From Lytechinus pictus (taxonomy: Eukaryota): a DNA stretch of 64,000 nucleotides. Location of the stretch: NCBI RefSeq assembly GCF_037042905.1, contig NC_087250.1, forward strand, positions 12,402,001-12,466,000. Direction: 5' to 3'. Every line of letters starts with the position of its first letter. The stretch's first letter is position 1. The position numbers were made by a program, and so were the translations under genes. Below the pieces are notes generated by a model. It saw nothing but the letters and a program-made list of their open reading frames with translations, did not search any database and was not told the origin of the DNA. Below, piece by piece: positions 34,514 to 64,000 of the stretch.

Positions 34514-37100
34514 ATGAGGAGGAGGAGGATGATAAGAAGAAGAAGAAAAGTTTTTAGTGTTTGTATTAATATTTGTTCAGTGGAACCATTAATTTTCTTT
34601 CAAGATATCCTTCTTCTACCCTTTCTGTGAAAGCCATATTTATCACCAATAAGGCCAAGATAACGTGTATTTGATTTCAATGCTTTACAATTAGTAAAAC
34701 AAAAAAATTGAGGGTCCCTGACGTGACGTATGGGGTAAAATTTCAACACCCCCCCCCCCCAAAAAAAAAAAACGCTGCGAGAGAGCAAACCTTTTGACCC
34801 TTTCAATACATGTACAAAGTATCTAATTTCGTGATAGATTTGAACATAATATTCAGAAAATAATATCATATTTCATCTTTCTCCTTTCATTTTCTTTCCT
34901 TTTTTTCTTAGTTGTGATTTTTTTGGGGTCCACACCCTCAAGCCCCACCCCCTTCTGTACGCCGATGCTTGGTCTGACACGACTGTTGAGATAAAGTTTG
35001 CAAGATCAGATCTGTGATGTTGGCTATCATCATCATATTGATTTCCTTCAACATCGGTTCCTCTAGACAGAACAAAATGACATTTAGGTCCCACCCTTTT
35101 ACCATTCACTGACCTTCTTTACCTACAACTGCATTATGTTACACCAGTGAATGAGTTTGAGCATTTACCCAGTTATGTTAGGACCTTTTCACACGTGAAT
35201 CTTGAATGATGATTGCAGGCGTTCGTGATTCAAATCATGTTCTAGTCTGGTTCCACACATGCTAAAAATTCGTCATCAGCCTTATTTTCACTGGAATCAT
35301 TCAAATTAGATTTTTTTTTTCCGTGTGAAAGGGCGGTTAGATAGAAGGCCTTTCCATACGTGAATCTTGAATCATCATTGTAATGATGATTGTTATTGTA
35401 ATCGTGACTGTGATTAGCGTTCGTGATTCTAATCATGTTCTAGTTTGGTTTCACACGTATTGTACTCAAAATTCGCCATTAGCCTTAATTTTCATTGGAA
35501 TCATCATTCAAATTACGATTTTTTTTACCGTGTGAATGGGCGGTTAGCTAGAGTTGTGAACATGGTGAATAGCCTAGCATTTTTAATTCCATACTTCAAT
35601 TCGATTGCTTGAATGGAGTTATATTTGCCGAATATGAACATAATTATGCTATTCATCTTACTTATCTGTATAATCTTACACTGTTTAATATGTTGTTTTA
35701 CGCACACTATTGATTTATAGTCATTGTTTCACCCAAATGTCCATTTCCTATAGTGCCCCTATTAATTCAGGACTTTCATTTCAGTGGTTTTTATCAGTGA
35801 TAAATACGACTTGCAGTTTATAACTATATTTTTCCGTTCTGATAACTTTAGCATTTTAGACATTTTCGTGTTATCATATATGTAAAACTAGTTGTTTGTT
35901 CATGTTACTAATCATTGCCTAGATAATGACTAAGAATTTGATTTTATTTACATGTATGGTATTGATTATTTTTGTTAAAATCTTGATTCTGTTATCATCA
36001 GGTCATTGATGAAAAACTGTTTTTATGCTGATCTTTTGTAACTGACTAAATTATATTCTAATGAATAAATATATAAATAAACAAATAAATTAATAAATAA
36101 GTAAATAAGTAAATGAATAAATAAGTTAAAGGAATAAATAAATAAAAGAATGAATGAATAAATAAATAAATAAATGAATAAATAGATAGATGAATAAATA
36201 AATAAATATATACATATAAATAAATACATACATAAAGTAATATCTCAGTTTAACGAGTTGCTTACTAAAGGTGCTATCCATATGCAAAGGCAATTGGATT
36301 TAAGAGATCTACTATTCAATGTGTTAATGATATCATAAACACGTATTAGATTAATCTTATTTATGTTATGCGAAAGCCACACTGGTGAATGCGTCCCCCC
36401 CCCCCCCATACCATCCAAATTTATTACATCGTTTCTAATGTCACGCATTAGGTTGGACAATAGTGCAGGTAGGTGTTTCATAAAGCTGTTTGTAAGTTAC
36501 GAGCGACTTAACAAACGACTTATGATCGTTTCTTAGGTGCTGAATAATCATCAATGAAAATTCGGCGCATATTAATTTGAAACAAGAAAGGATCACCAGT
36601 CGCTCATAATTTACCAACAGCGTTATGAAACACCCACCGGTTCTTGTAAGTGACCGTAGCATAAACAAGTTAGATTGTTTTAATACGTGTTCATAGTAGC
36701 ATTAACACATTGACTAGCATATGTCTTAAAGCCAATTGAGCCAATTGTATTTTCGTAGGGAAAATCCCGTTTTAGTGAGCAACCGGTTAAAACCAGGATT
36801 ACACCAAAACCGAATTCTCCCGAATAAAATTCGGACCGATTCTAGCCGAATTAGTCCTAATTCGGATGGTTCCGGTGGATTCGAATGTTTCTGAATCCTT
36901 GCTGAATTTTCTCGCATTCACGGAAGGAGACCAGAATACTCCCATAACCACCCAAATACGTGTATTCGGATGGATTCGCAGCTTATTCGTTTCCGGTGTA
37001 ACCCGGCCTTCCTCGACATAAAGGTAGGTTCAGGGATATCCCTGGTAGGTTATAAGAATCCAGAATCCATTGTAAACTTGTTTAATCTACTTTCTTGTAG

Positions 37101-37294
37101 GTTCAAGGGCGTCATCGGATAACCTGGAAGCACCTACAGATATGGGCAGCGCCACCAACGGTGGTCCAAGTCCAGAGGCCATTCAGCAGTTGTTTGATGC
37201 ATGTGATTTGGATGGTAACGGGTATATCGAATGGGAAGAGCTGGAGATGGTCTGCGAGAATCTGGACAGAGATGAACTCGAGCATATATTTGAG
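37101..37294 (+). CDS. RASEF: RASEF alternative N-terminal module A, exon 1 (EF-hand 1)
   Basis: ttgtag acceptor, in-frame ATG at 37142, GAG|gtcagt donor. Reads IQQLFDACDLDGNGYIEWEELEMVC, a canonical EF loop. Confidence 0.85.
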
Positions 37295-37914
37295 GTCAGT
37301 GGTGATTCTGCAAATCGGAATATTGGAAGGTGGGGGGGGGGGGGGGGGGGCGGTGGCCTCCAATGTGACAAATAGTTTAAGGTACTGTGTGATCGAAGAA
37401 AGATTAGCTGTTACTTGTTTAGGTCATGCTGGTAAGTGGACACTAAACGAGTAATTATTTCTTTGATCTGAGAGTACCTTAAAGTATTTTTCACATTATC
37501 CCACCGTAAACGATGTCTCGAATATTCTGCAAAGACTAGCTGCCTTGTAAAGAGTGCCAGGTTTGAGTCAAATATACCTACTTCCTAGCCTTAACTAGCA
37601 GCCTTAATTGCACCACCCAAAGTCCTCAATTTCTCATAGCTGGCCAGGTTTCTAACCATGACATCCCGAGCAATATAGTCTTACAAAATATAAGCCCACT
37701 TGAAAGATTTTCACACCAAATAATAATCCTGTTACCAAGCTGAAAAAAGGTACCCTTCCTTTAAAAAAAACATTCACGTTTATCTATACAAATTAAATTA
37801 TTGGCTGCTTTATTTTCTGTATTATCTCAAAAGGAATATCGACTAGCTATTTATAACAAACAGTCAATAAGCGATCACCCGTTTTTTTCAATTCGTCTTA
37901 TGCAAATTCTCCCA

Positions 37915-38365: not shown

Positions 38366-38553
38366 GCTTTAGATGGAGATGGTGATGGGCGAATCAGTAT
38401 CACCGATTTCACTGAAGGTTTCCACAGTGTCAGTGAAGCTCTCCTGTCCGTCAGCCGTCGTAGGCGGCGCCAGCAATATCTACAGGATTATGACAGTGAA
38501 GAATTTGAGGTCTTTCTGCAACAATTGGGACCTGATTTTGACCTCGTGTCATG
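38366..38553 (+). CDS. RASEF: RASEF module A, exon 2 (EF-hand 2)
   Basis: ttctag acceptor, TG|gtgagt donor (phase 2). Reads ALDGDGDGRISITDFTEGF...FLQQLGPDFDLVS. Confidence 0.85.
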
Positions 38554-40248
38554 GTGAGTCTAATAATATCCATACGTGGTATTTGTGATGATGACAATTA
38601 AGTTTGATTCAGTAAGTAATAAATCTATTATTTTGAAATGTTATGAATAATGCACTGTTTAAATGTATTAAGACATGACTTATTTGACAGATTAAGAACA
38701 GAAGTAGCAATGCACATCTGTTATCAATGATCAATTAAAAAAATGGGCGGGATTAAATCTGCATACAATAGAAACTATACTTGAATATAATTTTTATATC
38801 ATCGTCTTTTAACAAGAAAACAAAACGAAGATGAATAGGAGAAAACTGCTTTTCAGGTGTATAAGTAGAGCAACTATCTACTTACTCGAGAATGTCCGTA
38901 TACTTTTACAAATCATAGTAATGAATCATTACATTGCCATAAAGAAGTAAAAACTGATGAAGACAAGAGGTGAAAAAGTAAAGATGAAAGGGAAGGCATA
39001 TACCTTACTTACACTGTTAGATCTGAGAATGATTGATGTTTATTTTGAACACCGTCATGCAACAAGGGCAATTGGGCCAAACGTAATACGAAAAAAAAAA
39101 TGCCCCCAAAATTGTCTGGTTGTGTCTATGTTTTCCATTGTCTAAGCTCGGATTGTCATATATTTGGATATAAATTATATGGTAAATAAAAGTGATAATT
39201 TTTAACCGTCATTGCTAGAATAATGAGGGCATTCCCCCTTCCGCCTCCAATTCCCCCCCCCCCCCATTATTTATGTCCTTTTATTACTCGGCTTTGAACA
39301 TAATAACCCGAATTTCGACAAATATAAATGAGTGGATGAGAGGATTAATTAACGCATGAAACAGGGCCCATAGATCTGCATTGTCACATCAACTAATAGT
39401 TAAATAAGATTTTATGGCTATGTCATATCTCTGCATAAGTATGAAAGCGAATTTAATTCATAATCGCAATGGCAGCAAGGCCATCTTCTGGTGACGTACA
39501 CTTGATAAATTATTTTTGAAAATTGTATTAGTGTATTATATTTTATATAATAATATACAAGTGTATTATATATATATATATTTAACTGTTAGAAGTGCCA
39601 TTTCTTCCACGATCTGGTAGCATACCAGTCGTCAGGTGTGAGGTGGGTTTTAAACTGGATACCGTCAAAATCCTCTACATCCAGCGATCGAGATTAATTC
39701 CGAATATTCATGGAGCTTAAATATAAATACATAAGAATAAAACATCTGAAAAAGCCAACAAAATAATAATAGATTAATAGTGTACGTTTTTAATTTCACT
39801 CGCTGCTATGGAGTTTCTTTTTTTTTCTCTCTCTCTCCATAATATAATTGTCAGCTTACACAGTTACACATAATTGTTTGATTGAATTCGATACTTGATC
39901 TCAGCATAAGTATAGTGTTACTATGTTATTTAATTGGATTTTTAACAAGTGGGTTGTGACAGGTGTTATACATAATAATGATATAATATGCAAGCGGGTT
40001 TTGCTTTTATTGACATTGAAAATTCAATCCGCTCTGTTTATCATCGTCCTTGCCAATTACACCGAGCAACGTAAAAGTAGAAATACAGTATTTTTTGTAA
40101 CCATTGTATTAAAAGAACGGCTATACCAAATTTAGGAACCTGGGATTCCTAGAAATGTGCAATAAATTAATATGAGCAGTAACCATACAATATTTTTCGC
40201 GCCTGAATGCTAGTACATTAAGGAATTTCCGGTGAAGAAAAAACACAT

Positions 40249-42445: not shown

Positions 42446-43741
42446 AATAGTCATATATTTTTACATTATTCACATTTAAAAATGAATGCGGGTCTCCATG
42501 GAGATATAAACTAATATCATTTACGTCACCAGTCGTGCGTTAATATACATGTATGCCCTGCTGTTTTCAAGAAATGTCAATACCCTGAGGTTTAACAGTG
42601 TAAACTCTGAGTTAAGTGTATATACCAATTGACATTTAGACGGTTGGAGGGGGGGGGGGTGTCACAAGTCGTTAGAAGGGAGGCACCGTGCTTGTATGCA
42701 TGTACATTGAAAAGATCCTTAAACAAGACGAAACAACCATCTGAGAACACCCAAACGAATTTTATATTTTCCCCTCCATAAATAATATCTCAAATATTTC
42801 ATCTCCATGATAACCAATTTTCGCGTTTCTAGGTCGAAAACCCCCCACTTTTCTCAGATTTTTGCATTTTTGATACAAATTTAAATGTTCATATAAAGTC
42901 AACGGGTAGACAAAAACAACCCCTTTTCATTTTTTTTCGCTTCAAAATGAGAGTATACAATACCGACATAGATTTTCATCAGAGCTGCATCGCTGCGAGA
43001 AGTGAACATTTCCTTTAATCTTACTTAAGTGTGAAACACGGATGTCGGTTAACAATGCAACAGGTCCTCTTTTTTTAATTACCAGTGTGTCGTATTACTG
43101 TTCCTCGTCGTCATACGAAGTGTGTCCGTTCTTAATCACAACATCTCGCAACAGGTGTGCTCCCTGCCAGTGTTTGATTGAATGCAGAGCGGCATGTATC
43201 AGCTTGTGGAACTAGCATATTAATTTGGAGTTGAAACAAGTTGAAATTGCAGCCAATCGCAGAAGGAAAAGAAGGAAAAGAAGGATATTGCCCTGAATTT
43301 GGATTTTTATTTTGGAAATAGACCCATTCATTGGAAATGAATCCCAGAAGTGGATCCAGTGGCTCTAGTAGTTTGTTTAATTTATTTGAGATGAAGTCTG
43401 TTTCATTTGGATAATTGCTACGCCATTCCAGTTTTGCTGGTGACGTAGACCAAGTGTTGAGCTGATGTTGCAGTTGGAACAGTCTGCACAGGATCCGAGC
43501 ATAATCGTTTACTACTCTATTAAAAATAGTGGAAAGAAAGGGGAAACATTTGTTTTGTCTTCAGCATTCCTTAGATTAACCACAATTTCATCTTAAAGCT
43601 CATCTGAATCTATATTTAAAAAGAAAACCCAACAACGCCAACAACGAAACGTGGCAATCCTGAAAATGGGGTCATATGGATAAGTAAATATTTTTGGATG
43701 TAGGCGATTGGTATTCTGGGAAACACGATTACAAAGGAATA

Positions 43742-44175
43742 ATGGACGAATCACGTATCCGACACCTCTTCGAAGTCTGCGATCTCAACGCGAGCGGATA
43801 CATCGAGTACGACGACCTCCGCGATCTCTGCCTCGGCAGCGACCTGGAGATCACCGACGCCGAGCTCGGCAGCGTGTTCGACGAGCTCGACACCGATGGC
43901 GACGGGAAGATAAGCGTTGAGGAGTTCGAGCAGGGCTTCCAAGGGGTGGAGGAGCTGCTCCGACGGAAGGTCAAGGCCAACAGTAGCGGTGGTGGAGGAG
44001 TGTCGACAGGGGGGCAAGATGGAGTTGATGGGGGTAGCGATGGGTCCAAGAGGGGGCAGAAGAAGGGGGAGAACAATAATACCGTGACTGGTAGAGATGG
44101 GAAGGCTAACCAAGCCTACACGGCGTGGCAAAGCCTGGTGACCAGCCTCGGACCGGGCGTTACTCTTCTTCCAAG
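43742..44175 (+). CDS. RASEF: RASEF N-terminal module B (two EF-hands in one exon)
   Basis: Reads MDESRIRHLFEVCDLNASGYIEYDD...LDTDGDGKISVEEFEQGF...AWQSLVTSLG. GC-rich codon usage; AG|gtgcgt donor in phase 2; resembles vertebrate RASEF exon 1. Confidence 0.9.
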
Positions 44176-47100
44176 GTGCGTACTATATACGGCAGAATTC
44201 AATTCCAAAAAAATCAATTCAATTCAATTTATTTTCCACATATTGAGTAAAAAAACATACAATATCAGTACAATCAAATGCATTCATAGATAATAACAAT
44301 ACAAGTATAAAGAGTTACAATATATTACATTAAAAATTGAATTGCATTGAATTGAACTTGCCAGCCCAAGGGGGGGGGGGGGAGCGGTATAACCCTTTAA
44401 ACCCCCGTACATGTAGATCTGCCACTGATCGTACGTTTTATTTTACGTCATTACAATAAGACGACGTCATTACATTTACATGTCAAAATCATAAGAAGAG
44501 TTACAATTTCCATGAATATGAACCCAAGTTATGATTTAAAACAAGGCAAAGTAAGACGTTCCATATTTCAATATCAACATGATAATTCGGGGAACATTTA
44601 TGACGTCTTATTCGAAAATCAGGTCGCAAGGCAATCGTAAGGTTTGCGGTGGTCCTTATAGAAACGAGTTATGAATTTTTGAGTTCATTATCCCTTACTA
44701 CATTTTTAAACGAATGCGCAAAAAAAATTAAATGATGCTTTAACTTTTAAAACATATATTTTTTTATGGAAGAATAAGCAGAATACAACATATAGTGGGT
44801 ATGAAAGTTATAAATAATGTTATTGATTTATCTATTTATTTATTTACTCGTTTATTTATTTATCCATTTATTTATTTCGTTTTATTTATACAGGGTGCCC
44901 CCGTCAGTATTCAGGCTACTGTTTTCCAAGGGGCCCTGTAAACAGATATTTTCAACATAACAAGCAAACAAATAAACATAACAATATGAATGAACAATAC
45001 AAGCAGAATAATCGTAACTTTATATGGTATTTATGTTTATGTATTTAGTTTTCTGAGTTTATCGGGTTTAATTGTATGTTATTCTATTATGATAAGGGCT
45101 ATATATTTGAGTAAAATGTAAAGATATAGGTCGATGTAAATCTAAAAGCTGATGAAAGAGGAGGAGCGAATATGGAAAACCTTGTCAGTAGGGCCAAAAT
45201 TTTCTTGACAAAGAGTACATAATAATAATGATGATAATCCGGGAGCACTTAAACGTAATTTATCATTTCTGACGACCCCTTCTTTTTCCCTCAAAAAGGG
45301 AAAAGGGTAAGAAAAAGTCATCGAAATTTTGTTGGTGTCGGGGAGGATAGGGCACCTTGCCACCTCTGCCCACCATCTCAATCAAGCTTGTGATTATGAC
45401 ATGTATGAGGGGTGAATGGAATCGCTATAAATATACGACTTTGGGATATATCCTACCTACCTCCACGGCTCACTAAATGAAAATTTACGATTTTAAATAT
45501 TAAGACTGTAAAAAGTTAAAGTACAAGTGAGAACTAACCATTATGTAGCTTGAACCAAAAGAAAAATAATAAAATCATGAATAAAATAGCATTAAGGATT
45601 ATTTCTTTGCTTTTACGAGCCGGTTTATTTTATAACTTTGCTACCGATTTCGGCTTAGATTATACCGTCAAGAAATGTATTTATTTATTTATTTTGTTTT
45701 ATTCATTTTATACTGCAGGGTAGGCCTGTTCAGTTCTTAAAACTGCTTTACAAAGGCGCCATGCAGTTTAAAATACATGTCAAGATAACTATGAACAACA
45801 ACAACAAACAACATCAAAAATACAAAATACAAAATATCTAACATCAGAAACTATTAACACCAAAATATAGAGTGGGAAGTGACAATTTAAACATACATAG
45901 CATTGTAAATCAAAGAAGTAAATAATTAAACAAATATACCAACCACAAACATGACAAATTTAGCAATATGCCTGCGTAATACCATTTACAAAGTAATTTA
46001 TGCACATTTACACTCAGCAAGTAGTACGCGGTGTACCATGAAATTAGGGGCGGCGCAAGTATGTTCTGATTAAGGGGGAGGGGGTGAAAGAATAGCTAAA
46101 AGTGACGCAAATGTTTCTCATTGAAACACAAAAGTGTATTATAAATTCATACGGCCCGGTCGCCTGGATATTCTTCCTGAATATAAATATTTGTTATTTT
46201 CTTTTAATTGTTTACTGTTACTCTCATTTTCTTTCGTATTATTATTATATATTACTGTTATTATTATTATCATCATCATCATCGTTATTATCATTTATAG
46301 TTAAGACTTGTTTATACAAGGTAGCCTCATCAGTGACGCACACTGTCCTCCCAGAGGCCCCTGTTACATGTAAGCACACACAGATACATGTAAAAAAATA
46401 ACCCAAAACAAAGGAGAAAAAAAACTCCAAAGGTACAAAAAAGAATAAAGTTTGCCGAGTTGTTTCGTAACTCTAGGGTTAAGGACTTAGGGTTCTACGA
46501 TAGGTTGAAATGAAAGATTTCATTTTTCAAACACCCTTTTAATATGTTTTGATCAAGTAAAAACAAAATGGGCGGCCGTGCCAATGCCTCCCCCCCCCCC
46601 TCCTGTTGCACCACCAATGCGTGGGATATTAAATAATATCCAACCCTGTCACGGCCGTTGACGCCAGATGGAGCTTTCTCATGCATAATACATACATAAA
46701 CGTGATATTCCGAGTATTTACTGTACACACAATACACGATATACCTTTCTGATGAAGTGTGTGCGAATATACATATATATATATTTATATTTAATCCTGT
46801 ATAGCATGCATAAGAATTATCAGTATACACCGAGATATGAAATGTCATTGTATCGTCATACCATGAGTTAAAGAAGGAGTTATTTTAAAACAACTAGCAA
46901 TGCATTCCCAAACATGCAGGCTGTCACAAAATTTAAAATCTTAGCTGTAGCAATGGGTTCATGTGTAAACTTCGGGATTGTTCATTTTTATTCGAATAAA
47001 TAAATGAATAAATAAGAAAATGATAGAATTATACTTTTAGTATCCCCTTCCACATCTTTACGGAGCAGTATATTCAGTGATGGAGATACCCCCGCGGATT

Positions 47101-48473: not shown

Positions 48474-48576
48474 GGTGGTATTAGTATTATTAGTATTATT
48501 ACCATTATAAGCATTATCCATATCCGTTTTAATTTACAAGTATTTAGATATAAATTAATTAATGTAGTATTAGTAA

Positions 48577-48635
<59 letters not shown>

Positions 48636-48774
48636 TTTATTACCATTATAAGCATTATCCATATCCGTTTTAATTTACAAGTATTTATATATAAATTAAT
48701 TAATGTAGTATTAGTAGTAGTAGTAGTAGTAGTATAAGTATTAGAAGTAGTAGTAGTAATAGTAGTAGTAGTAA

Positions 48775-48829
<55 letters not shown>

Positions 48830-48895
48830 ATTAGTATTATTACCTTATCATTATCCCTATCTGTTTTAATCTACAAGTATTTAGATATAAATTTA
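48375..48895. repeat. (TAG/TAT)n microsatellite with a repeated unique spacer
   Basis: ACCATTATAAGCATTATCCATATCCGTTTTAATTTACAAG occurs at 48501 and 48642, with a diverged copy near 48842. Confidence 0.9.
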
Positions 48896-51170: not shown

Positions 51171-51781
51171 GGAGAGATCGAGAGTGGAGAGACAGAGAGA
51201 TAGATGGAGATACTGTAGAGACAGAAAAAAAATGGACAGGTTTTCGTTGAGCCTAATGTGGGTGTAAAAGAGTGCGGTGAGGTTTATGGCATCCATTTTG
51301 TAGTTCATTTAGAATGCTAAAGTGAATTATGCATGATGAACTAAAACACGCGCACAAAAAAAAAACACATGATAAAAAAAGGAATTTACATGCCCTTTAT
51401 GAAATTATTTGAAGATCATGAACAATTATTTTGTATTTGAAAACAAAAGGTTTTGCATGAATTGAAAGTGGAAATAAGTGATTGTAATAATATACGACAT
51501 TTAGAAATTTCAGTATTTCCTCCGATATTGGGCCTTATAGTGTTACGTAACCACGTTAAAGACTGATATATATCCATATATATATATACATGTATATATG
51601 AATAGAAATAAATATATATAATTTCACAAATTCCATTTTATGTAACTCTACCAGATCTCGATCCATAATGATATATTGACAATCTTGGTTTTACCGGCTT
51701 TTTAAGGCTTTCTGGTCTAAATATCAGTGTTTTACTGCAACTTCTTTCATTTATCATATTTTTTTGTTTTCTTATTTTCAG

Positions 51782-51931
51782 CCAAGATCAAATTTGTGAG
51801 TTGTATCAGCAGCTCCATTCGTCGGAGGTGCCTCAAACACTTCGCCAGTATGAATCCGTTATCTATGACGTCATAAAGGATCTTAGGCAATACCAGTCAG
51901 AAGTCGATAGGTTAGAGAAATCATTAAAGAG
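51782..51931 (+). CDS. RASEF: RASEF exon
   Basis: tttcag acceptor, AG|gtaagc donor. Reads QDQICELYQQLHSSEVPQTLRQYESVIYDVIKDLRQYQSEVDRLEKSLKR, like RASEF EQVSTLYQ...YEHVI. Confidence 0.9.
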
Positions 51932-52342
51932 GTAAGCTGTTTATAATTCCTTCTTTTTTCAGTATTATTTTTTAATATTTTTTTTATTATTATCATCAGT
52001 AGCAGTAGTAGTAACACTTCTAGTATAATCATGTGCTGTAAACTTAGATTCATATGAATTTCATTGCATTTTTATTTTTTTATGATCTCATGTCCCGGGA
52101 AGAACCCAATAGATTGAATTTACATTTTCTTATAATTATTATCATTGTTATTTGTGTTATGATTTTTATAATATTTATCATTACTACTTGAATTATTATC
52201 ATTATTATTATTATCATTATTACTATTATCACAATTATTATTTCTATTATCATTATTATAATCATTATTTCCAAAATTATTATACCATTATCATGAAAAA
52301 CTCATGATGATCATCATTATCAAATGCAATCATTTATTGCAG

Positions 52343-52433
52343 GACAAATGAAAGCAATACCGAGCACCTACAGCAGCTGGAGTATGAGATGGAAGTACAG
52401 ATGACAAGAACAGAACAGAGAGTTAGGAAGGAG
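52343..52433 (+). CDS. RASEF: RASEF exon (coiled coil)
   Basis: ttgcag acceptor, GAG|gtaaga donor. Reads HLQQLEYEMEVQMTRTEQRVRKE. Confidence 0.9.
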
Positions 52434-52459
52434 GTAAGAGCATAGTACTGAATGAAGAT

Positions 52460-54210
<1,751 letters not shown>

Positions 54211-55313
54211 TACACATTGCTAGTGCAGTTTGATGTATAATTTATATTAAATGTGATATATTTATATACACTATGTTTATGTTTTTCAACTCGGTCTGCA
54301 ATCATCATTGCTTATTCAAAAGATGAAGTATTTTAAAATGTTTTTATATTAATGTGAACCGTATGTTTGTAAATTTACCAATACCACCGAGTCCCTATGT
54401 CTATAGAGGAAAATAATATTTCAATAATAATTGAATACTGGTAAAAGACTACGACTGCGAATCAGATAATTGATTTATGGATGCGGTGGCAGTTGAACAA
54501 TAGGAGGATGAATGGCTCAACGCTCAACAAAAAGAAATCAATATACCTATATGCACCGCCTTTCAAAAAGACTGTATTCCCATACCATCTTAACGATCAA
54601 TACGGTAACTCCTTCGTACACAATGTGCTTGAGATGTGCTCGGATACCAGTCTAAGAAAAATAAGATCAATAATCGGGATGGTTTCTTAAGATGTTTATT
54701 GCGTCCTTGCTCTGCCTACCTCCAAACCTACTTGTACCATATTCTGGACCACAGAAGACTTAAGCTTGAATCACTGTAGATTGTGCGATGTGATCGTTTA
54801 TAAATCTGGCGTCTATATGGAACCTACCAAATGATTGGTCCGGGAAGAAAGCATCCTAAACACGCTTCATGTTTATCTTAATCAGTTTTCGAGTCTGGAA
54901 GTTTGGGCACTTGAATGATTTTAAGGAATAGACCATTCCCCCAATAGACGAGTCCTTGGTGCCTGGAAGTGAATGCAGTGACATTGGCTTGTTCCTAGCA
55001 GTCGTTAGCGAAACTTCTGTCCAGGACCTGACCTCCCACGTGATTACCTTCAAAAGGGAAATCTGAAATGGATGGTTCCATGTCTCCGGGGAAAGTTATT
55101 TCGGATCTTGATTCATTCTACATCATGTGACAGAAAGATTTTCAATGGGGATTGTCATTTATCTTGCTTTTCGATGTAATCAGTTTAAGATGTTATAGGT
55201 CTCTTTGATTGTTGATCTGGATAATATTCAGAATCATCTGCAAGGGCTTTAAAGGTGGAACTTATTACAAACGATATTTATTTGGAGGTTAAGGAAAAAG
55301 TCACACAAGCACG

Positions 55314-56609
55314 ATGGATCTCAGCTTTAACAGTCTTAAGGCTGCTTGGAGCGATGTTACCGAATCGCTCGGTGAGGCTGGTGAGGCCTTCAAGTCGCTG
55401 ATGACGGATGATTTCTCTCAGCCCGTACCCGCTCCTAAGCCTTACGATGCATCCGCCCATAAGTACAAACCAAATCAGCAGGTTCCACAGACGTCAAAGG
55501 CAACAGGGCAGCTTCAGAGACCGACAGGGAACACTGCAGCCAAGCAGAATCTGTCATCAGGTCTTCCACAAAATGCATCCGTCAATAAACAATCCAGTGG
55601 TGCAGTAAATCCACAAAATGTTCACCAGAATGGAATGGAGCAGAAGTCACAGCCCTCCCTACATCACCAACAGGGTCGTTCTATTTATGAGCCGTACTAT
55701 GCCCCGTCGCCAAGTTTTCCATCTGCTTCTGACCAAATCAGGGCTGCTCTTCAGAAGACTGCAGCACCAAAGCCCACAGAGGCTAAACAAATCAATGATA
55801 CTTCAAGTGGTATGATGAGTTCTCAACAGAAACAAAATCTCTCTTCAAATCATTCTACAATTAGTCTCCACGGGAATGAACACAATCTTAATCAGAATTC
55901 AGTAGATAATACTTCCCGACTGTACAAACCACCACCTTTCACAGATGAACATACTAATGTTGCACCACATTCTTTGCCTACAAATGACCAAATGTGGGCA
56001 ACATCCACCACAAATCTGAAGACACTGCCGAAATACTACAAGCCAACACCTTTACTTGCTCATTCTAGTCAAAATGCAGCTCATGGTCTCCAAGGAATTA
56101 ATCATGGTGAATCTCTGCTAACACATTCCATGTCCAATGACACATTACCGAAACATTTCAAACCATCCCCTTTGGTCGGACATTCGGGAATATCTTCAAG
56201 CTCTGGACCGTTGTCCAAAAGTGGCAAATTTGATACGCACCTGACGGATGTTCCGAATGAAGGAATTCTGAGTCACGAACCACACACTTCACTGTCAACT
56301 CGATCAAAATCAGTGTCTGATCTTAAGAAAGCGGACTCTACACCCGATCTTCAACGGGTTAGCAGTTCATCCGGCTTCAGCAGTGAGCATTCTAGCTTCC
56401 AAAGGCCAATCCCGCATAAACCGCTTCGAACCAGATCAAGCTGGCAGGATCTGAACTTGCACAAGTCAACACCGGACCTAAGAAGATGTGGCATCAGCCC
56501 AGGACCTGGATATGAATCTCCAGGAGCAGTAGTTCTTTCAAGAAGGAACTCGATAGGGTCAAGGCCCAGAGCATGGCGATCTTTATCGAGGGGACCAACC
56601 CCATCTCAG
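55314..56609 (+). CDS. Putative alternative first coding exon of RASEF (432 codons, S/P/Q/H-rich, likely disordered)
   Basis: Longest ORF in the window. In-frame TAA at 55290 precedes the ATG, and CAG|gtaaaa at 56609 is phase 0, joining exon 56956 in frame. Confidence 0.7.
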
Positions 56610-56955
56610 GTAAAACGTGAAAGCAGCAGTATTTCCTGCGCGATGGCCGTGTCATAACAGTAACTAATGACATTTTACCATTGGGTATGAAGCACGTATA
56701 GCATCGTTATTTCATGGAGCTCCATGTTTACCTATTTCCTTCGCTCTTGGGGCATAGGAGTTATTGTTGATGTTTATGTATCAACCCTCATTGAACTACC
56801 CATGTCCTCCAAAGTAGACTCGTTACACATAGTGTCAGTAAACGAAATAGCATATTCCACGAGCTTACAAGAATTCGTACGATCGAGAGAAATAGGTCAT
56901 ATGTATCAGTGTGCATGACTTTGAAGTAAAATTTTGATGATCTTTCTTTTGACAG

Positions 56956-57051
56956 GAAAGGGAAAGAATAGAATCTGAGAAAGCCGAGATCCAGAGGCAG
57001 CTTGAGGCAGAAATTCGAGAATTGAAAAGTAATCTCAATCAAATACACAAT
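56956..57051 (+). CDS. RASEF: RASEF exon (coiled coil)
   Basis: gacag acceptor, AAT|gtaagt donor. Reads ERERIESEKAEIQRQLEAEIRELKSNLNQIHN. Confidence 0.88.
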
Positions 57052-57570
57052 GTAAGTGTGGATACTTTACAGATAATCATCTTTTATGACTTAATTCGTT
57101 TGGAAAAATGCATTTTCGGTTATTTGGTAAGAATTTTTTCAGTGTTTCAGTAATTATATGAGCACATGTTACCTCCAAACTACCACCCCGCCCATCTGCT
57201 TTGAAAATACATCCCAAGGTGTGGATTTTTGTTCACCTTTTTTCACAGAGGGAGATAGATAGATGAATAGAGAGAAGGGGGGATACATGAACCATAATAA
57301 TTGATTTTTTGAAATGATGGTTCTTATGCACAAATATCGAATTAAACTTTGTTTTGATAATATCGTATCAATCGATCTTATATCAGTCTGCAGACAGAGA
57401 TTGATTTGAGCAAAACCGGTGTGTTGGGCCAAGATTAGCACCACTTGGCACGCTTGCCCAGTCAACCTCAAGTAGGCTTGAAATTCATACTTTGTTACGA
57501 TAAGTGATTCAACAAACCGAGCTTTTGTACGTGCAATCTAATGATGTTTCTCCATTGTTCTTCTTTAAAG

Positions 57571-57770
57571 GCTGAAGACAAAGTCGACAGAATAGACAAG
57601 CCACGCGAAGACCTGCTCCATTCCCTGAAACAGGACCTCGAACAATTGAGAAGTGAAAATAGGAGTCTGAGAAGCAGTCTAACCGAGGCTCAGACCAACT
57701 TGGTCCTCTCAAGAAGCGAGCTCGTCACCCTGAAAAGTGACTTTGATGAGCAGAATGGATTCATTTCAAA
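57571..57770 (+). CDS. RASEF: RASEF exon (coiled coil)
   Basis: taaag acceptor, AA|gtatgt donor. Reads ENRSLRSSLTEAQTNLVLSRSELVTLKSDF, matching RASEF [20 protein letters not shown]. Confidence 0.92.
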
Positions 57771-59121
57771 GTATGTTTGGCCCACTGGCTTACTGATGAG
57801 GGGGGGGGGGAACGGGGGCTCTCACGACAAAAAAAAAGGGGGGAAACGTGATTTTTGACATTTTCTGAATATTTCACAAAATTTTTCACAAAATAAGATT
57901 GTATTAAGATTAGATTTGTATTGAAAATGTCAACGAATTTGCAAGCATAGTTCGTATGTCCGCAGCATACGCCATTTCTGCCCCCCCCCCTCAACATAAT
58001 TCTTGGCTCATTACGCACCGGCTTGACCCATCTCGTTTCTACAAGTTTGAATGTATATTTTGTTGGAGGCTTTTGCAAGCAGGGGGCGACAGGTTATCGC
58101 CAACAAAGAGACGAGTTCAAGGTGATGGTTTTTTGGTCTATGAATGATAAACGCCCCCCTCTAATAATAGAGAGGGAAAAAATTCCCCCTCTCTCTTTTC
58201 AATACTTGGAAAATGGTAGAGGCGGTTGCCCCTGCCGCATGTAGACCCCCCCCCCCCACTACACACACACCCTCAAACACACACACACATTGGTTTCTGT
58301 TTATCATGGTGACTCCCGTAGGAGCTCTGCAGGACAGCATTTTACTGGTAAACGCCAAGCTGATACATAACCAATTACCTAGGAAACATTTTACGTCAAG
58401 GTTAATCAGTCATAGTGGCTGACCTTATAGACGACAGTTATTACTCTCATGTCTTTTTATCAAAGTGGAGACAATGAAAGAGAGGGGATTCGAACTCACC
58501 ACCTTACGATAATGAGTCCAATGCTCTAACCACTGGACCACACGACCCGTTGCAAATAATGGACCATGTTATCAAGATGTATATTGATCCATTTATTTTC
58601 AATTCTTGATCCTTTATTAATGAATAATTCGTAGTTCTTTTGTCCTGATTGTAAATGGTGATGTGTGATACCATTATTCATCAAACTGTTATTATTTCCG
58701 GCCTGGAAAATTGTTACTAGGATTAACTTTGTCATCTTATGTTTATCTTGATTATTCATATTATAATTTAACGATCAAATAAATACATCTTTTATTTAAG
58801 TCATACATATATTAAGGTCTTGTCGAAAATGTTTAGTCGAATGCAATTACTTCTGACCAGAAAACAGCACTTTACAACGTCTACACATGCAAGTACAAGT
58901 GTCGGTTGCACCTTAAGGATTAGTAATTATATTAATTTAACTAGCTTACTTTCAGAGTGTGCTATGTAATACTGATGGAAATATTATTTAGACTTCTAGG
59001 ATATACTTCTTTTTAATACATTGTTACTGTAATGTTTACTAAGACTATTGCATTTGTAGTCTATTGTTGCGACTAGCAGTATGAATATTGCGTATATATT
59101 TTTGTTTTATTTATTTTTCAG

Positions 59122-59190
59122 TAATCGTGACGTCATACAAGACTACATCGGAGAACAGGAGAACCTAACAAGACAACTCCAATTACTACA
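59122..59190 (+). CDS. RASEF: RASEF exon
   Basis: tttcag acceptor, CA|gtaagt donor. Reads RDVIQDYIGEQENLTRQLQLL. Confidence 0.88.
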
Positions 59191-59223
59191 GTAAGTTAAT
59201 TAAAAGGGATGTTTCGAAAACTA

Positions 59224-59475
59224 CACTGTAAAAACATTGGATAAATTTTTAACCAGCACGAGGGTAATTATGTGTCCAACCATTTTGGGGCAGTATTTTA
59301 CCCAATGCGGGAAGCATATTTTCCAGTAAGGTTAAAAAATTAGCAGCAATTACTTTAGAATGGGCAAAATTTTCATCACACTGGATGAATAAAAATGCCC
59401 AAAAGAAATGCCCAATGTTGGTTGGACCCATAATTACCCTCATGGAGCATTTTTTACTCAATATTCTTTAGAGTG
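59224..59475. mobile_element. CACT-ended MITE
   Basis: TA|CACTGTAAAAA...TTTAGAGTG|TA; homologous to 34259-34513. Confidence 0.78.
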
Positions 59476-59754
59476 TAGTATAAACATATCACAAAGTAAT
59501 ACAGAAATAATGTTAGCATATATTTTCAAAATTTTCAAGTGTATAGTTTAATGAAATTTTATTTATATTAAAAAAACACTGAGTAATAATATCAAACAAA
59601 TAATACTAAAACAGTGATTTGTTTCCTTGAAACGCAATTACGACATTTTACAAAAATAATAATAATAATAATAATAATTATAACATTTGTAGGGCGCTTA
59701 ATACAGGTGTTTCTAAGCGCTCAGTTTTCTGCTGCCTATCAACTAAATTACCGG

Positions 59755-59796
<42 letters not shown>

Positions 59797-60085
59797 AACG
59801 TAGAACTTAAAAAATAAGAAACATCTTGGACTACACATACTATAATGTTACGTGAGGAGGAGGATTTATTATCAATGTTATCAAAGCTATAAAAGAATCA
59901 TGAGCTAAATATTTCTTCCACCGTTTGGAAATATCATTAAAAACACGTGTTTGATAGCTTAAATTATTTATACGAATCCGGATGATTCGTGAAACATTTG
60001 TTTTTTTAACATATTTCAACAAAATACCCAAAGTTTGTACATATCCATACAATTCTAAACGAGTTGCCTTTTTTCTGATTTACAG

Positions 60086-60152
60086 TGAGGCAAACAAAAA
60101 ACTTCAAGACACAAATGACGATCTTAGAGCTGCACTGGAAAATGTATCGAGA
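60086..60152 (+). CDS. RASEF: RASEF exon
   Basis: tacag acceptor, AGA|gtaagt donor. Reads EANKKLQDTNDDLRAALEN, matching RASEF ANRKLHDSNDGLRSALEN. Confidence 0.93.
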
Positions 60153-60711
60153 GTAAGTAGCCGAGATTGAGGGTAGTATATAATATCTGGTGGTAAGATT
60201 AAGCATAACAATTATAGGCCTTAACATAATTTAAGATGTCAGGATGTACATGTAATCTAATTTTCTCTCTGATTCTTTTTTAATCAAAGCGTTAACTAAA
60301 CTTTGAGTAAATTCATTTCAAACGTGGAAAACATTATACTTTTCATTAATGAATATTTTCATTCCTTTATTGAAAGCAAATTATAATAAGAATGTTGACT
60401 AACGTTCAAAATATTTTTCAAACTGGTGAAACTTAAATTATTTGAGAAACTCCTTATTAATTGCCATTTTCTAGGCGATTAGTAGTAGTATTTGGGTGAG
60501 TAACTTTCTTGCCCATCCCTGTTATCTTGAATTAATTTCGTATAAATCATTAAAAGATATACATATAGTATTATTATTATTATTATCATCATCATCATCA
60601 TTACTACCACGCATTTATTATTTAGTATCATTATCATTAATACATATTTCCTTGTCTCCAAATTTGTAAATGTCTTGATCGGCTTTATAAAAAATGATAT
60701 TTTCATTTCAG

Positions 60712-60800
60712 TCGTCTCGGATGTCGCCTCGAACGACACGTCTTCTTAGCTCAGCATCGTACATGAATGATTACGTAGATGATGACGTCATGATAGATCA
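60712..60800 (+). CDS. RASEF: RASEF exon (linker)
   Basis: tttcag acceptor, CA|gtgagt donor; open frame, phases 0-2. Confidence 0.75.
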
Positions 60801-61411
60801 GTGAGTGTTAAATGCATATCATGTTTTTACGCACTAGTATTTTCAGACATCTTCGTTTTAATATTGTTTGTTTTATGTTGGTTCACTTTTGATTTGTTTT
60901 AACTGATTCTTGTTTTTTCCTAGTTATTTATTTGGCACTTGCCGCATCCATACCATGCGATACATTAAATGTAATGTTTAATTGATTTTGGTTTGACATG
61001 TTTCAATAAAACGTGTGAAAACAAGCCCTCATATAATATAAAACAAGCCTCCATGAAACAAACTAGCCTTCAAATTATTTTCTATGAGTGCTTGCTGCAT
61101 TTCCATTCATTATTTTTACCCGTACATGATAATTCTAATTTTGATATTACTCCTCTCCATTTTGCTGATGTTCAAATTTCAAATTTTGTATTTTGTGCAG
61201 AGATTGTATGTAGTGTATCACATACATTTTGAATCTGCTTATATGCTCCGTGGAGAAACATTGAATAAAGACTTCCTTTGCAAGGAGTATTTTGCCTTTT
61301 TTCTATCATTTGTGTGGGATAATGTTGTTGCTATCATATTCTTTCTTTGAAAGGGGGAAAACATCCGCATGTTATTGAATGGATTTTTTTTCTGCCATAT
61401 CACACCCGCAG

Positions 61412-61536
61412 GTCTAGGCAGCGTAAATCGTACGCATCGCAAGGTTCATACGAAGGCTCCGAGGTTCAGATGAATGGAGGAAGGCGCCATTTTGCTTACC
61501 ATACCACTAACGGTGACAACTACCCCGACGATGGAG
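61412..61536 (+). CDS. RASEF: RASEF exon (linker); the gene continues past the window
   Basis: cgcag acceptor, G|gtaggt donor; phase 2 in. Reads SRQRKSYASQGSYEGSEV... Confidence 0.72.
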
Positions 61537-61789
61537 GTAGGTTCTGATATACATGTATGTACATGTATATATTATTTTGATTTACTCAAGGAAGTGTTTT
61601 GAAAGGACGAATTGATAAACAATAATATTTCATCATCAATGATACTGCGCTTTAGTGATGGCCGTCGAGCTCTAGAGTGATAATATTGAGTTTTAACACT
61701 GCAACGCAGAAAGCTTTCAAAAACATAGAACATGTATATTGTTAAATGCCCTTTATGACAAAGAGCAAGCAAGAAGTCTTTATCTAAAA

Positions 61790-61900
61790 CTGGTGAATCG
61801 AAACAGCAGTTTCGTCCTGAACTCTCTGGACGGACAAATTCGATATTTGTAAGGTATTTTTTCCTGCTCGGACAAAACTGCTGTTCCGGTTCACCAACTT
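61790..61900. mobile_element. Small MITE
   Basis: TGGTGAATCGAAACAGCAGTTTCGTCC / GGACAAAACTGCTGTTCCGGTTCACCA inverted ends. Confidence 0.6.
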
Positions 61901-62104
61901 TGTGGATGTCAGTAATAATGTTGAATTTTACTTTTATTAAATACCGGTCACGTTAAAAAGGGCGTTATTTCAGATCTGAAGATGGGCCATTGATGAATTC
62001 AACTGGGGCCATACCTACTGTTAACTGGTTGGTTTCTCTCGAAAACCCCATGATTTCACTAATTAATATATTTTATCACCCCCCCCCCCCCTGGGAAGAA
62101 GTCA

Positions 62105-62460
62105 TTGTCGCACAGTGTGTCTCAAAGTGTGTTCACACTCTGAAATATGAGTAATTATCTTCACACTGTTGGAATTAGGCATGTTACTCGTGTGAACCGC
62201 ATCTTTGTAGTATCTACTATGTGAACACACTTGTGGACAGACGCTCTCACTGTACAGTCGTCCACAGTGGAATTTCAGCATTTAGACAGTATGAGACATA
62301 TCTGTAAAAAGCCCATTATATGATCACACTCAAACCTAACAATGTGGAGATTTACACAGTGTGGAATTACCTTCACACTTGTAAATTTGGGAATTTAACC
62401 AAATGTGAATTACATCCTTACATAGTCCAGTATGTAGACACACAGTGATCAAGATGTATG
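62105..62460. repeat. Dispersed CACAGTGTG/CACACTGTG-rich repeat; relatives at about 28420-28660, 40710-40990 and 63720-63990
   Basis: Recurring CACA(C/G)TGTG motifs in four regions. Confidence 0.55.
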
Positions 62461-64000
62461 ACAATGTTTTCTATCCTACTGCGATCGTCATTTACAGTTT
62501 CATGAATTCTAAGTGCATGCTATTATTATTCAAACGATTATCATGCAGAATGCAGATTCAGTGTCACTATTGTAATGAAGATCGACAAAATATTATATTT
62601 TCATAATTATACTACTTATATCTCAATTGTAATATTATGTTGCTGTTTTATGGTATATAATTATTTTTTTTATATTATCTGTATGTAAGTTATACATTAT
62701 TTATTCCAATGTATAAGATTTGCAGGTACGTCTCTTTTATACGGTAAACATTAAATGCATGGCCTTGAGTAATTTGCCTTAGAATAGATTGATGCTCTAC
62801 GATGTTGAAATAATGTAAACAAAAAATCAAAATAATCATTTTATTAATATTTGATGGTCTAGCACTCATACAACAATCTGGAGCGAGAAAACTGCTCGAG
62901 GAATTTCTAGGTGAGGGTGTGTGGCGATTGCTGTTTAAAAAGCTCAGATATAATAAATAATAACCGCCCACCATGTTCTCAATGTGTAATGACATAATAT
63001 CGCTGATTTTCACTGTGTGAAAACCTAATACACCTATTCCATCATTTAGGTTTTACTAATTGTAGACTTGTGCACTTAAATTTCGTTTGACTTTCTTCTA
63101 TTACGATATGAACAAGTATTTCGTGGATGTGCATTTGTGGTGGAGGCTTAATCAGTATGGACTCCGATTTACCATTCTTCGTTAGAAGAATTTAGCTCCT
63201 ATTACTCTTACCAATGGATGAACTCTACCCAGTATTGCATGATATCATGTTCCTTCTGTAAAGTAACTACTAGTATAAAATGAACGAATTAAAAAGACAA
63301 ACTAAAAACCAACAGTTAACTTATTTGCTGTGACTAATAATTCCTGTCTTCCCGAGAAATCCATTAATACATCATTTTAATAGCAATTCTTATTCAAAAA
63401 ATATTTCAAAATATATCCTACAACAAAGAGAAAAAATCACACTTAAAGTGTTCTTACAAATTTCATACATCAATTTTTACTATACGAACATTAAAAGTTG
63501 TTGTTTAAAAGGTTTAAACAAGTATTTAAAATCTTAAACAAAACCGTTTATTTTTAATAAACTTTGTTATTTAAGATTTCAAAATATGAAGATATCAAAA
63601 TTTTCAGTTCTTGATAAATCAAGCATGCTTTTTAAACTGTTAAACAACTTCTGAAAGGTTTATATACCATAACAACGTTGTATTAAAATCTTAGACGGTG
63701 TTTCTAGCTTTTAATCCCCACTGGAGGATAAACACAGTTTTCGACAGTGTAACACACAGTGTGAAATAACCTTCACTCTGTTGATTTTAAAGCATTATAA
63801 CAGTGTGAATCAAATGTTTGAACAGTCTACTAATTTTATTTTGCAAATATTTACACTTTTGAGATATCCACAGTGTGAACATTTCTTCACACCGTTCAAT
63901 ATGAGCATTTTGACAATGCGGTTCCCATTTTTACACTGCACATTTACACTGTCGACTTGTCCACAATGGGGAATTATGCTAACATTGTTTAATTTAACAT

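Follow-up and report, generated by a model that had tools for sequence, protein, structure and literature searches.

Gene context of the head exon

The window analysed here is a stretch of 64,000 nucleotides of Lytechinus pictus DNA, and its + strand carries part of a RASEF/Rab45-type gene. An open frame at 55314-56609 (hereafter the head exon) sits in the intron between the exons of this gene that end at 52433 and start at 56956 (Table 1), which is where an earlier, sequence-only reading had placed it. Both flanking exons are in phase 0, the first of them ending ..AGGAAGGAG/GT (a slash marks the splice site). Further upstream on the same strand, two ORFs of the window matched Pfam EF-hand families: 37076-37372 (EF-hand_6, E 8.5e-07) and 43688-44290 (EF-hand_7, E 9.4e-16). 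Two separate Met-initiated EF-hand N-termini are apparent there, one composed of 37076-37372 and 38366-38554 and the other of 43688-44290 (+), which encodes a full EF-hand pair within one exon. Coiled-coil exons lie between these and the head exon, at ∼51.78–51.93 kb and 52311-52433; of the splicing from this upstream part of the gene, only the 52433>56956 join was seen.

Downstream of the head exon, a tblastn search with the related protein P0002 (see below) matched 56956-57048 (97%), 57571-57768 (89%), 60078-60158, 60709-60798 and 61413-61535, and the exons 56956-57051 and 57571-57770 correspond to the region of P0002 between its head and its Rab domain (97% and 89%, respectively). When the exons were joined at the observed junctions, the frame was open from 55314 to 61534. 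The window stops before the Rab-domain part of the gene, and a tblastn search of the window with P0002 residues beyond 596 returned low-complexity chance matches only; judging from its relatives, the head isoform of this species would also end in a Rab domain. The 69-nt exon at 59122-59190 may be a cassette exon; otherwise, the older model behind P0002 overlooked it. At the far end of the chain, contigs from datasets X1 and X2 (described below) join 61534(+2)>62861(+2); the exon so reached encodes ALIQ.SGARKLLEEFL, which the related protein P0004 also has, and 16 reads from run X22 leave 61536 into sequence reading DSGNSTLRDP (translated by eye), as in P0002; no exact match of the latter sequence was present in the window. 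The exon at ∼62863 thus looks alternatively skipped.

Several other features were observed in the window. Two intronic segments, 58257-58565 and 59184-59492, are high-copy interspersed repeats, with X1/X2 contig depth in the thousands and many loose ends; ARAGORN found no tRNA genes on 57800-59600, and ORF translations similar to these repeats occur at ∼8.1–8.4 kb and 42.2 kb. Trinucleotide arrays occupy 52459-52635, 53787-54175 and 48564-48836: (TAC)x59 and (ACT)x130 flank the intron before the head exon and, with a complementary (GTA)n array ∼5 kb upstream, make up 140–160-nt inverted repeats. Apparent exons of a WD40-repeat gene were noted at ∼2.4–8.0 kb and 21.2 kb (+); one of these WD40-like pieces had a Pfam WD40 match with E 6.8e-05 that fell short of the gathering score, and matches of the others were weak or absent.

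Table 1. Features of the RASEF/Rab45-type gene around the head exon.
Feature	Position	Strand	Evidence and remarks
Last exon specific to EF-hand isoforms, joins 56956 and skips the head exon	52311..52433	+	Loose end at 56954 matching 52402-52431
TATAAAT, ∼110 nt 5' of the first covered base	54799..54805	+	Candidate core-promoter element, proposed from sequence only
399-nt 5' leader running straight into the ORF, with 9 upstream ATGs	54915..55313	+	X1 contig 1 coverage
In-frame TAA closing the frame 5' of the ATG	55290..55292	+	Sequence, frame listing
Probable alternative first coding exon, 432 codons (P0001), encoding an EF-hand-less head predicted to be mostly disordered	55314..56609	+	ORF; X1 and X2 contigs; orthologues P0002, P0003, P0004
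Intron, 346 nt, GT..AG, removed from head-exon transcripts	56610..56955	+	X1 contig joint
Shared coiled-coil exon (ERERIESEKAEIQRQLEAEIRELKSNLNQIHN), acceptor for the head exon and the 52433 exon	56956..57051	+	tblastn, RNA joints
Shared coiled-coil exon	57571..57770	+	Joints 57051>57571 and 57770>59122 in all 4 runs; 89% identical to P0002
Shared 69-nt exon (NNRDVIQDYIGEQENLTRQLQLLH)	59122..59190	+	Joints in all 4 runs; in P0004, absent from P0002
Shared exon	60086..60152	+	tblastn, RNA joints
Shared exon	60712..60800	+	tblastn, RNA joints
Shared exon, end of the in-frame chain from 55314	61412..61536	+	tblastn, RNA joints

Open frame and exon boundaries

The stop-to-stop frame in the standard-code listing spans 55293..56657 on the + strand (454 codons) and is preceded by an in-frame TAA. 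The ATG at 55314 is the first in frame and stands in good context (A at −3, G at +4), so that 55314-56609 comprises exactly 432 codons (peptide P0001). The exon closes at the donor CAG/GTAAAA, with its GT at 56610-56611, and the acceptor of the downstream exon reads TTTTGACAG/G; past the donor, the frame runs on for 16 further codons to a stop at 56655-56657. As the sequence-only reading had stated for this 1.3-kb frame, no phase-0 acceptor lies between the TAA and the ATG: the sole AGs there would open an exon at 55301 or 55310, both off-phase, and on inspection neither is preceded by a pyrimidine tract. Because of the TAA at 55290 and the absent phase-0 acceptor, the head exon is unreadable in frame from upstream, and the possibility that it is a cassette exon was rejected on the same grounds.

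The other five frames of the head exon contain 14 to 32 stops, the chance of 454 open codons at the local base composition is ∼1.3e-10, and the second-longest stop-free frame in the whole window, on both strands, has 201 codons. GC content is 0.40–0.50 over 55200-56799, compared to 0.25–0.42 over 51400-54599. No tandem repeats were reported between 54176 and 57867, and the stretch before the ORF was therefore correctly described as non-repetitive.

Transcription and alternative splicing

The RNA analysis covered 54240-63500 and was kept clear of the trinucleotide arrays at 52459-52635 and 53787-54175; because of this range, the EF-hand exons and the 52433 exon are represented by a loose end only. 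Four datasets were used; the run search listed no holder recorded as RNA, and organism B runs with small shares (0.04–0.13) were left aside. X1 and X2 are Logan contigs labelled ‘RNA?’ by guess, which we took to be spliced RNA because the GT..AG joints of the gene (57051>57571, 57770>59122, 59190>60086, 60152>60712, 60800>61412 and 61534>62861) are found in both. X21 and X22 are raw stranded RNA runs, of which ∼6% each was read.

Contigs from X1 tile 54915-56606 with no gap. A 612-nt contig of depth 21.6 follows the genome over 56026-56606 and then jumps to 56953, with GT..AG ends; this joint fits equally well three bases further on, which gives 56609>56956, the phase-0 junction that had been foreseen from the sequence. 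The junction rests on this one X1 contig, whose short side is 31 letters long. The X1 depth of 14.3 in the bin 56403-56711 equals 204 covered bases at a depth of 21.6, which implies that the start of the intron (56607-56711) was uncovered in X1. An X1 contig of the shared exon, with a depth of 42.5, starts at 56954, as expected where two upstream paths fork; a second contig terminates there in a loose end. In X2, five contigs lie on parts of 55087-56577, and the 56609>56956 joint is not among the assembled contigs.

The depth of X21 and X22 on the head exon was 0, and the downstream exons were covered. Reads that skip the head exon by joining 52433>56956 numbered 23 in X21 and 19 in X22, with one further contig each in X1 and X2; the predicted in-frame joining of these two phase-0 exons without the head exon thus occurs. 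The loose end concerned (TGACAAG...AAAGG at 56954) has a single match in the window, to 52402-52431 (one mismatch), which is the end of the 52433 exon. Exons were covered in X21 and X22 solely by pairs with the first mate on the − strand, which in most stranded libraries corresponds to + strand RNA. Both forms exist: some samples use the head exon, and in others it is silent. Its coverage in X1 and lack of coverage in X21 and X22 point to a sample-specific alternative first exon.

Relatives and conservation of the head

Relatives of the head were sought by word-index and HMMER searches. The ‘longer’ word-index search gave one match (P0002) among 5812 candidates and the ‘near’ search gave two (P0003 and P0004) among 3182, while the ‘shorter’ search with residues 330-432 gave none among 26; HMMER against 1.84 billion representatives returned P0004 alone. 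Neither type of search found head relatives beyond these three, i.e. outside urchin entries, which may reflect sparse echinoderm sampling rather than a true absence.

P0002 is a UniParc entry of 917 aa that starts MDLSFNGLK and is 53% identical to the window head over 97% of its length. Its head (...VLSRKNS/ERERIESEKAEIQ...) is followed by a coiled coil and a Ras-family domain (E 4e-49); Pfam gave GTPase families only, and no EF-hand. P0003 (437 aa) derives from a 1838-nt Logan contig and represents the whole head alone, with 55% identity at 100% cover; it ends ...PTPSQV, reading through the donor. P0004 is isoform X5 of the NCBI Strongylocentrotus purpuratus (S. purpuratus) RASEF homolog and carries the last ∼120 head residues, with 79% identity over the last ∼100. 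It contains ...VLSRKNSVGSRPRAWRSLSRGPTPSQ/ERERIES (...RGPTPSQ/ERERIES), the same junction as 56609>56956, and starts at an internal Met rather than at MDLSF. P0002 and P0004, which are possibly computational gene models, both have a Pfam Ras match (E about 1e-49) and end ...GCCDF. An alignment of the two gave 609 identities and 74 gap columns in 692; apart from exon-sized gaps and a handful of residues close to the P0004 start they do not differ, and they very probably belong to one species. At 84% identity to P0002, P0003 was counted as a third lineage.

Both P0002 and P0004 are orthologous to the head exon, P0004 sharing its donor junction and P0002 its start (MDLSFN...); they differ in belonging to another species, in the internal Met start of P0004, and in the junction of P0002 (...RKNS/ERERIES), which lies 19 codons earlier than that of the window. 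This earlier donor could be an alternative one specific to that species, or it could be an old-model artefact. At the corresponding place in the window, 56551-56553 is an Ile codon (ATA) after ...RRNS, and no GT is present; S. purpuratus-type proteins have Val here, so that, judging from the proteins, their gene could offer a GT donor at this place.

Two of the relatives' proteins begin at the same Met as the window head, and head length differences among relatives are of whole codons only, including a 21-codon insertion (DTHLTDVPNEGILSHEPHTSL) in the window. Identity to the relatives is uneven along the head: 75–78% over residues 1-36, 67–69% over 109-144, 28–44% over 181-324, 83–86% over 361-396, and 92% (to P0003) over 397-432. 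Among the differences listed between X1/X2 and the window, at least 16 fell inside the ORF, seven of them synonymous and nine not (304 and 992 sites, respectively); the resulting pN/pS of ∼0.39, from a small sample, fits a coding but loosely constrained sequence. The alignments indicate that the head exon has been kept open in three urchin lineages. The description of the exon as an orphan was mistaken, given orthologues in other urchins and its 3' part in NCBI S. purpuratus isoform X5. The frameshift in close relatives that would have spoken against a coding exon was not seen, as the head is open in both P0002 and P0003 with whole-codon indels only.

Motifs and predicted structure

The peptide P0001 contains three KPxP units (LYKPPPF, YYKPTPL and HFKPSPL), two TPDL motifs (DSTPDLQR and KSTPDLRR) and two RSxS-type sites (RSKSVSDL and RTRSSWQDL). 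The internal repeats reported from the sequence are kept in relatives, namely the KPxP units and both (S/V)TPDL(Q/R)R units, along with RTRSSWQDL and SR(R/K)NS. Of the two RSxS sites that had been proposed, both are present in P0001 and RTRSSWQDL is conserved; RSKSVSDL is not, relatives reading TAMVASDL at that place.

Pfam assigned no families to the head at E≤1, in keeping with the EF-hand-less N-terminus that had been suggested and with the passage of P0002 from head to coiled coil to Ras-family domain. A search of the ESM Atlas with the head gave a best score of 0.76 (recognition 956), below any useful level. AlphaFold2 modelling yielded a mean pLDDT of 40.9 and a pTM of 0.15, with helices only at residues 5-32 and 138-148; the alignment had 4 rows, and low pLDDT from it is weak evidence of disorder. 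Ser makes up 16% and Pro 9.5% of the head, and disorder-promoting residues 58%. Together, model and composition suit a head that is disordered for the most part, as the sequence-only reading had anticipated, and that has a short helix at its N-terminus.

Transcript start and competing explanations

X1 contig 1 (687 nt, depth 18.9) fits the genome over its whole length, 54915-55601, and depth was zero on 54240-54857 in all four runs. A transcript start at or a little upstream of 54915 is the simplest reading of the contig coverage, and from where the X1 contigs begin, together with the zero depth on 54240-54857, we infer an internal promoter near 54.8–54.9 kb. A different account would make the head exon internal or 5'-extended, with transcription starting further upstream, at an EF-hand promoter or an unseen non-coding exon, and with no promoter at ∼54.9 kb; the ORF would then be reached by internal initiation only, or would lie within a nonsense-decay-prone variant. 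Contigs cannot show the true 5' end of a transcript, and the leader holds nine upstream ATGs, which would damp translation of the main ORF and are unusual for an efficiently translated first exon. However, contig 1 follows the genome from 54915 without interruption, no joint or loose end is listed within 54240-55313 in the four runs, every run is at zero before 54858, no AG is found directly before 54915 on reading the sequence, and the same starting Met recurs in two relatives' proteins. We therefore regard an upstream start as improbable.

It could also be argued that the locus is transcribed but untranslated, with a frame open by chance or composition and gene models that simply followed the ORF. 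Such an argument could draw on the lack of peptide evidence, on the low-complexity, disordered sequence with no assigned family, and on the many upstream ATGs; it is highly improbable, however, given at least 430 codons open in three lineages at 53–55% identity with whole-codon indels and strongly conserved blocks, a probability of chance opening of ∼1e-10, and a per-site excess of synonymous changes. Also highly improbable, in our view, is an independent, unspliced gene within the RASEF intron that stops at 56655-56657. The 16 codons past the donor and P0003, whose 437 aa read through the donor to ...PTPSQV on a 1838-nt contig, are what such a gene would produce, but that contig may be genomic DNA or pre-mRNA, P0004 and P0002 run on into the coiled coil and Rab domain, and in X1 the transcript is spliced 56609>56956 with no depth on 56607-56711. 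The ending at 56657 without spliced reads that would have marked an independent gene was thus not found.

Proposed model

The long ORF at 55314-56609 is confirmed as a real coding exon, and with high probability it serves a sea-urchin large Rab GTPase gene of the RASEF/Rab45 type as an alternative first coding exon. Some samples contain transcripts that run unbroken from 54915 through the 399-nt leader and the 432-codon exon, are spliced from 56609 to 56956 and remain in frame across the shared exons; others draw on the upstream EF-hand exons only, with 52433 joined directly to 56956. We propose that the start near 54.9 kb reflects a promoter in the intron. The predicted product would carry a Ser/Pro/Gln/Thr-rich head of 432 residues, with an N-terminal helix, two more conserved stretches and mostly disordered linkers, in place of both EF-hands and of the two leading coiled-coil exons (51.8 and 52.4 kb). 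It would retain the rest of the coiled coil and a C-terminal prenylated Rab domain, and would thus be expected to remain a membrane-bound, self-associating Rab, minus the EF-hand-mediated (Ca2+/dynein) coupling. The conserved short motifs of the head may recruit other partners or undergo kinase control.

A bolder and rather doubtful extension is that the head constitutes an echinoid-restricted ‘head swap’ on a dynein-adaptor-type Rab, which would, in particular tissues or stages, re-route the Rab/coiled-coil cargo module from Ca2+/dynein coupling to another partner. Under such a scheme, a lineage-specific disordered module would replace the EF-hand and first coiled-coil segment; the module would carry a conserved amphipathic helix at its N-terminus, LPx(Y/H)(Y/F)KPxP(L/F) units in duplicate, and a tail that is near-invariant (…RTRSSWQDLNLHKSTPDLRR…VVLSR(R/K)NS(I/V)GSRPRAWRSLSRGPTPSQ). 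If true, the head swap would be a cargo-adaptor switch by promoter choice, not a mere truncation.

Comparison with known large Rab systems

Isoforms are common among large Rab GTPases, examples being mouse Rab44-S, mouse Rab45-S and Caenorhabditis elegans (C. elegans) 4R79.2b, according to a review of this family (PMC8303950). The same source describes Rab44-S as having no EF-hand domain and half the coiled coil, and Rab45-S as a testis form with no EF-hand domain. For mouse Tsg/Rab45-S, transcription begins at an alternative site with an alternative exon 1 and the product is without the EF-hand domain (PMC5057473; PMC8303950), being translated from an internal Met (PMC5057473). Tsg/Rab45-S is the closest known case (PMC5057473): it belongs to the same gene family, has its alternative exon 1 within the gene, lacks the EF-hand, keeps the coiled coil and Rab domain, and is expressed in a tissue-restricted manner (testis). 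As described there, its exon 1 is non-coding and the internal Met is in the common frame, so that the protein is a plain truncation of 97 residues; in the urchin, by contrast, the start codon lies in the alternative exon, which contributes 432 unique residues, and two coiled-coil exons (∼51.78–51.93 kb and 52311-52433) are replaced. Rab44-S and 4R79.2b resemble the urchin form in being EF-hand-less, Rab44-S also being without the N-terminal half of the coiled coil, but they are other paralogues, and a long unique head is not described for either.

Mammalian Rab45 and CRACR2a, which are dynein-activating adaptors, combine EF-hands, coiled coil and Rab (PMC6504896), and the EF-hand isoforms of the urchin gene are predicted to be built alike. 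In that study, mutation of the CRACR2a EF-hands abolishes dynein-dynactin binding; for Rab45, dynein binding is Ca2+-insensitive, and a direct role of its EF-hands is put forward as a suggestion (PMC6504896). The urchin head isoform differs from the dynein adaptors CRACR2a, Rab45, Rab11FIP3 and ninein in being without the N-terminal EF-hand pair. From the mammalian EF-hand/dynein data, it would be expected not to respond to motor or Ca2+ control exerted through EF-hands, and not to act as an adaptor of the EF-hand dynein type.

In the literature on RASEF and sea urchin, as judged by titles and the beginnings of abstracts, no publications on urchin RASEF isoforms were found. The exon itself has a prior record, in part in NCBI S. 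purpuratus isoform X5 and in full in the older UniParc entry. EF-hand-less isoforms are already known for this gene family, and the head exon is real but fairly ordinary. The urchin case stands apart in that the coding sequence of its lineage-restricted head lies in the alternative exon; it is not a new kind of system.

Significance

A 1.3-kb intronic frame is hereby confirmed as a real, regulated coding exon, and existing gene models are corrected or extended, as NCBI S. purpuratus X5 begins at an internal Met and the older entry uses another donor. The habit of large Rabs of producing EF-hand-less isoforms from internal starts probably reaches echinoderms. The urchin brings a twist, in that its alternative exon contributes a long head that evolves rapidly and includes a small number of strongly conserved short motifs. 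The EF-hand and EF-hand-less forms make a natural isoform pair, which could provide a handle on the EF-hand contribution to RASEF-type adaptors.
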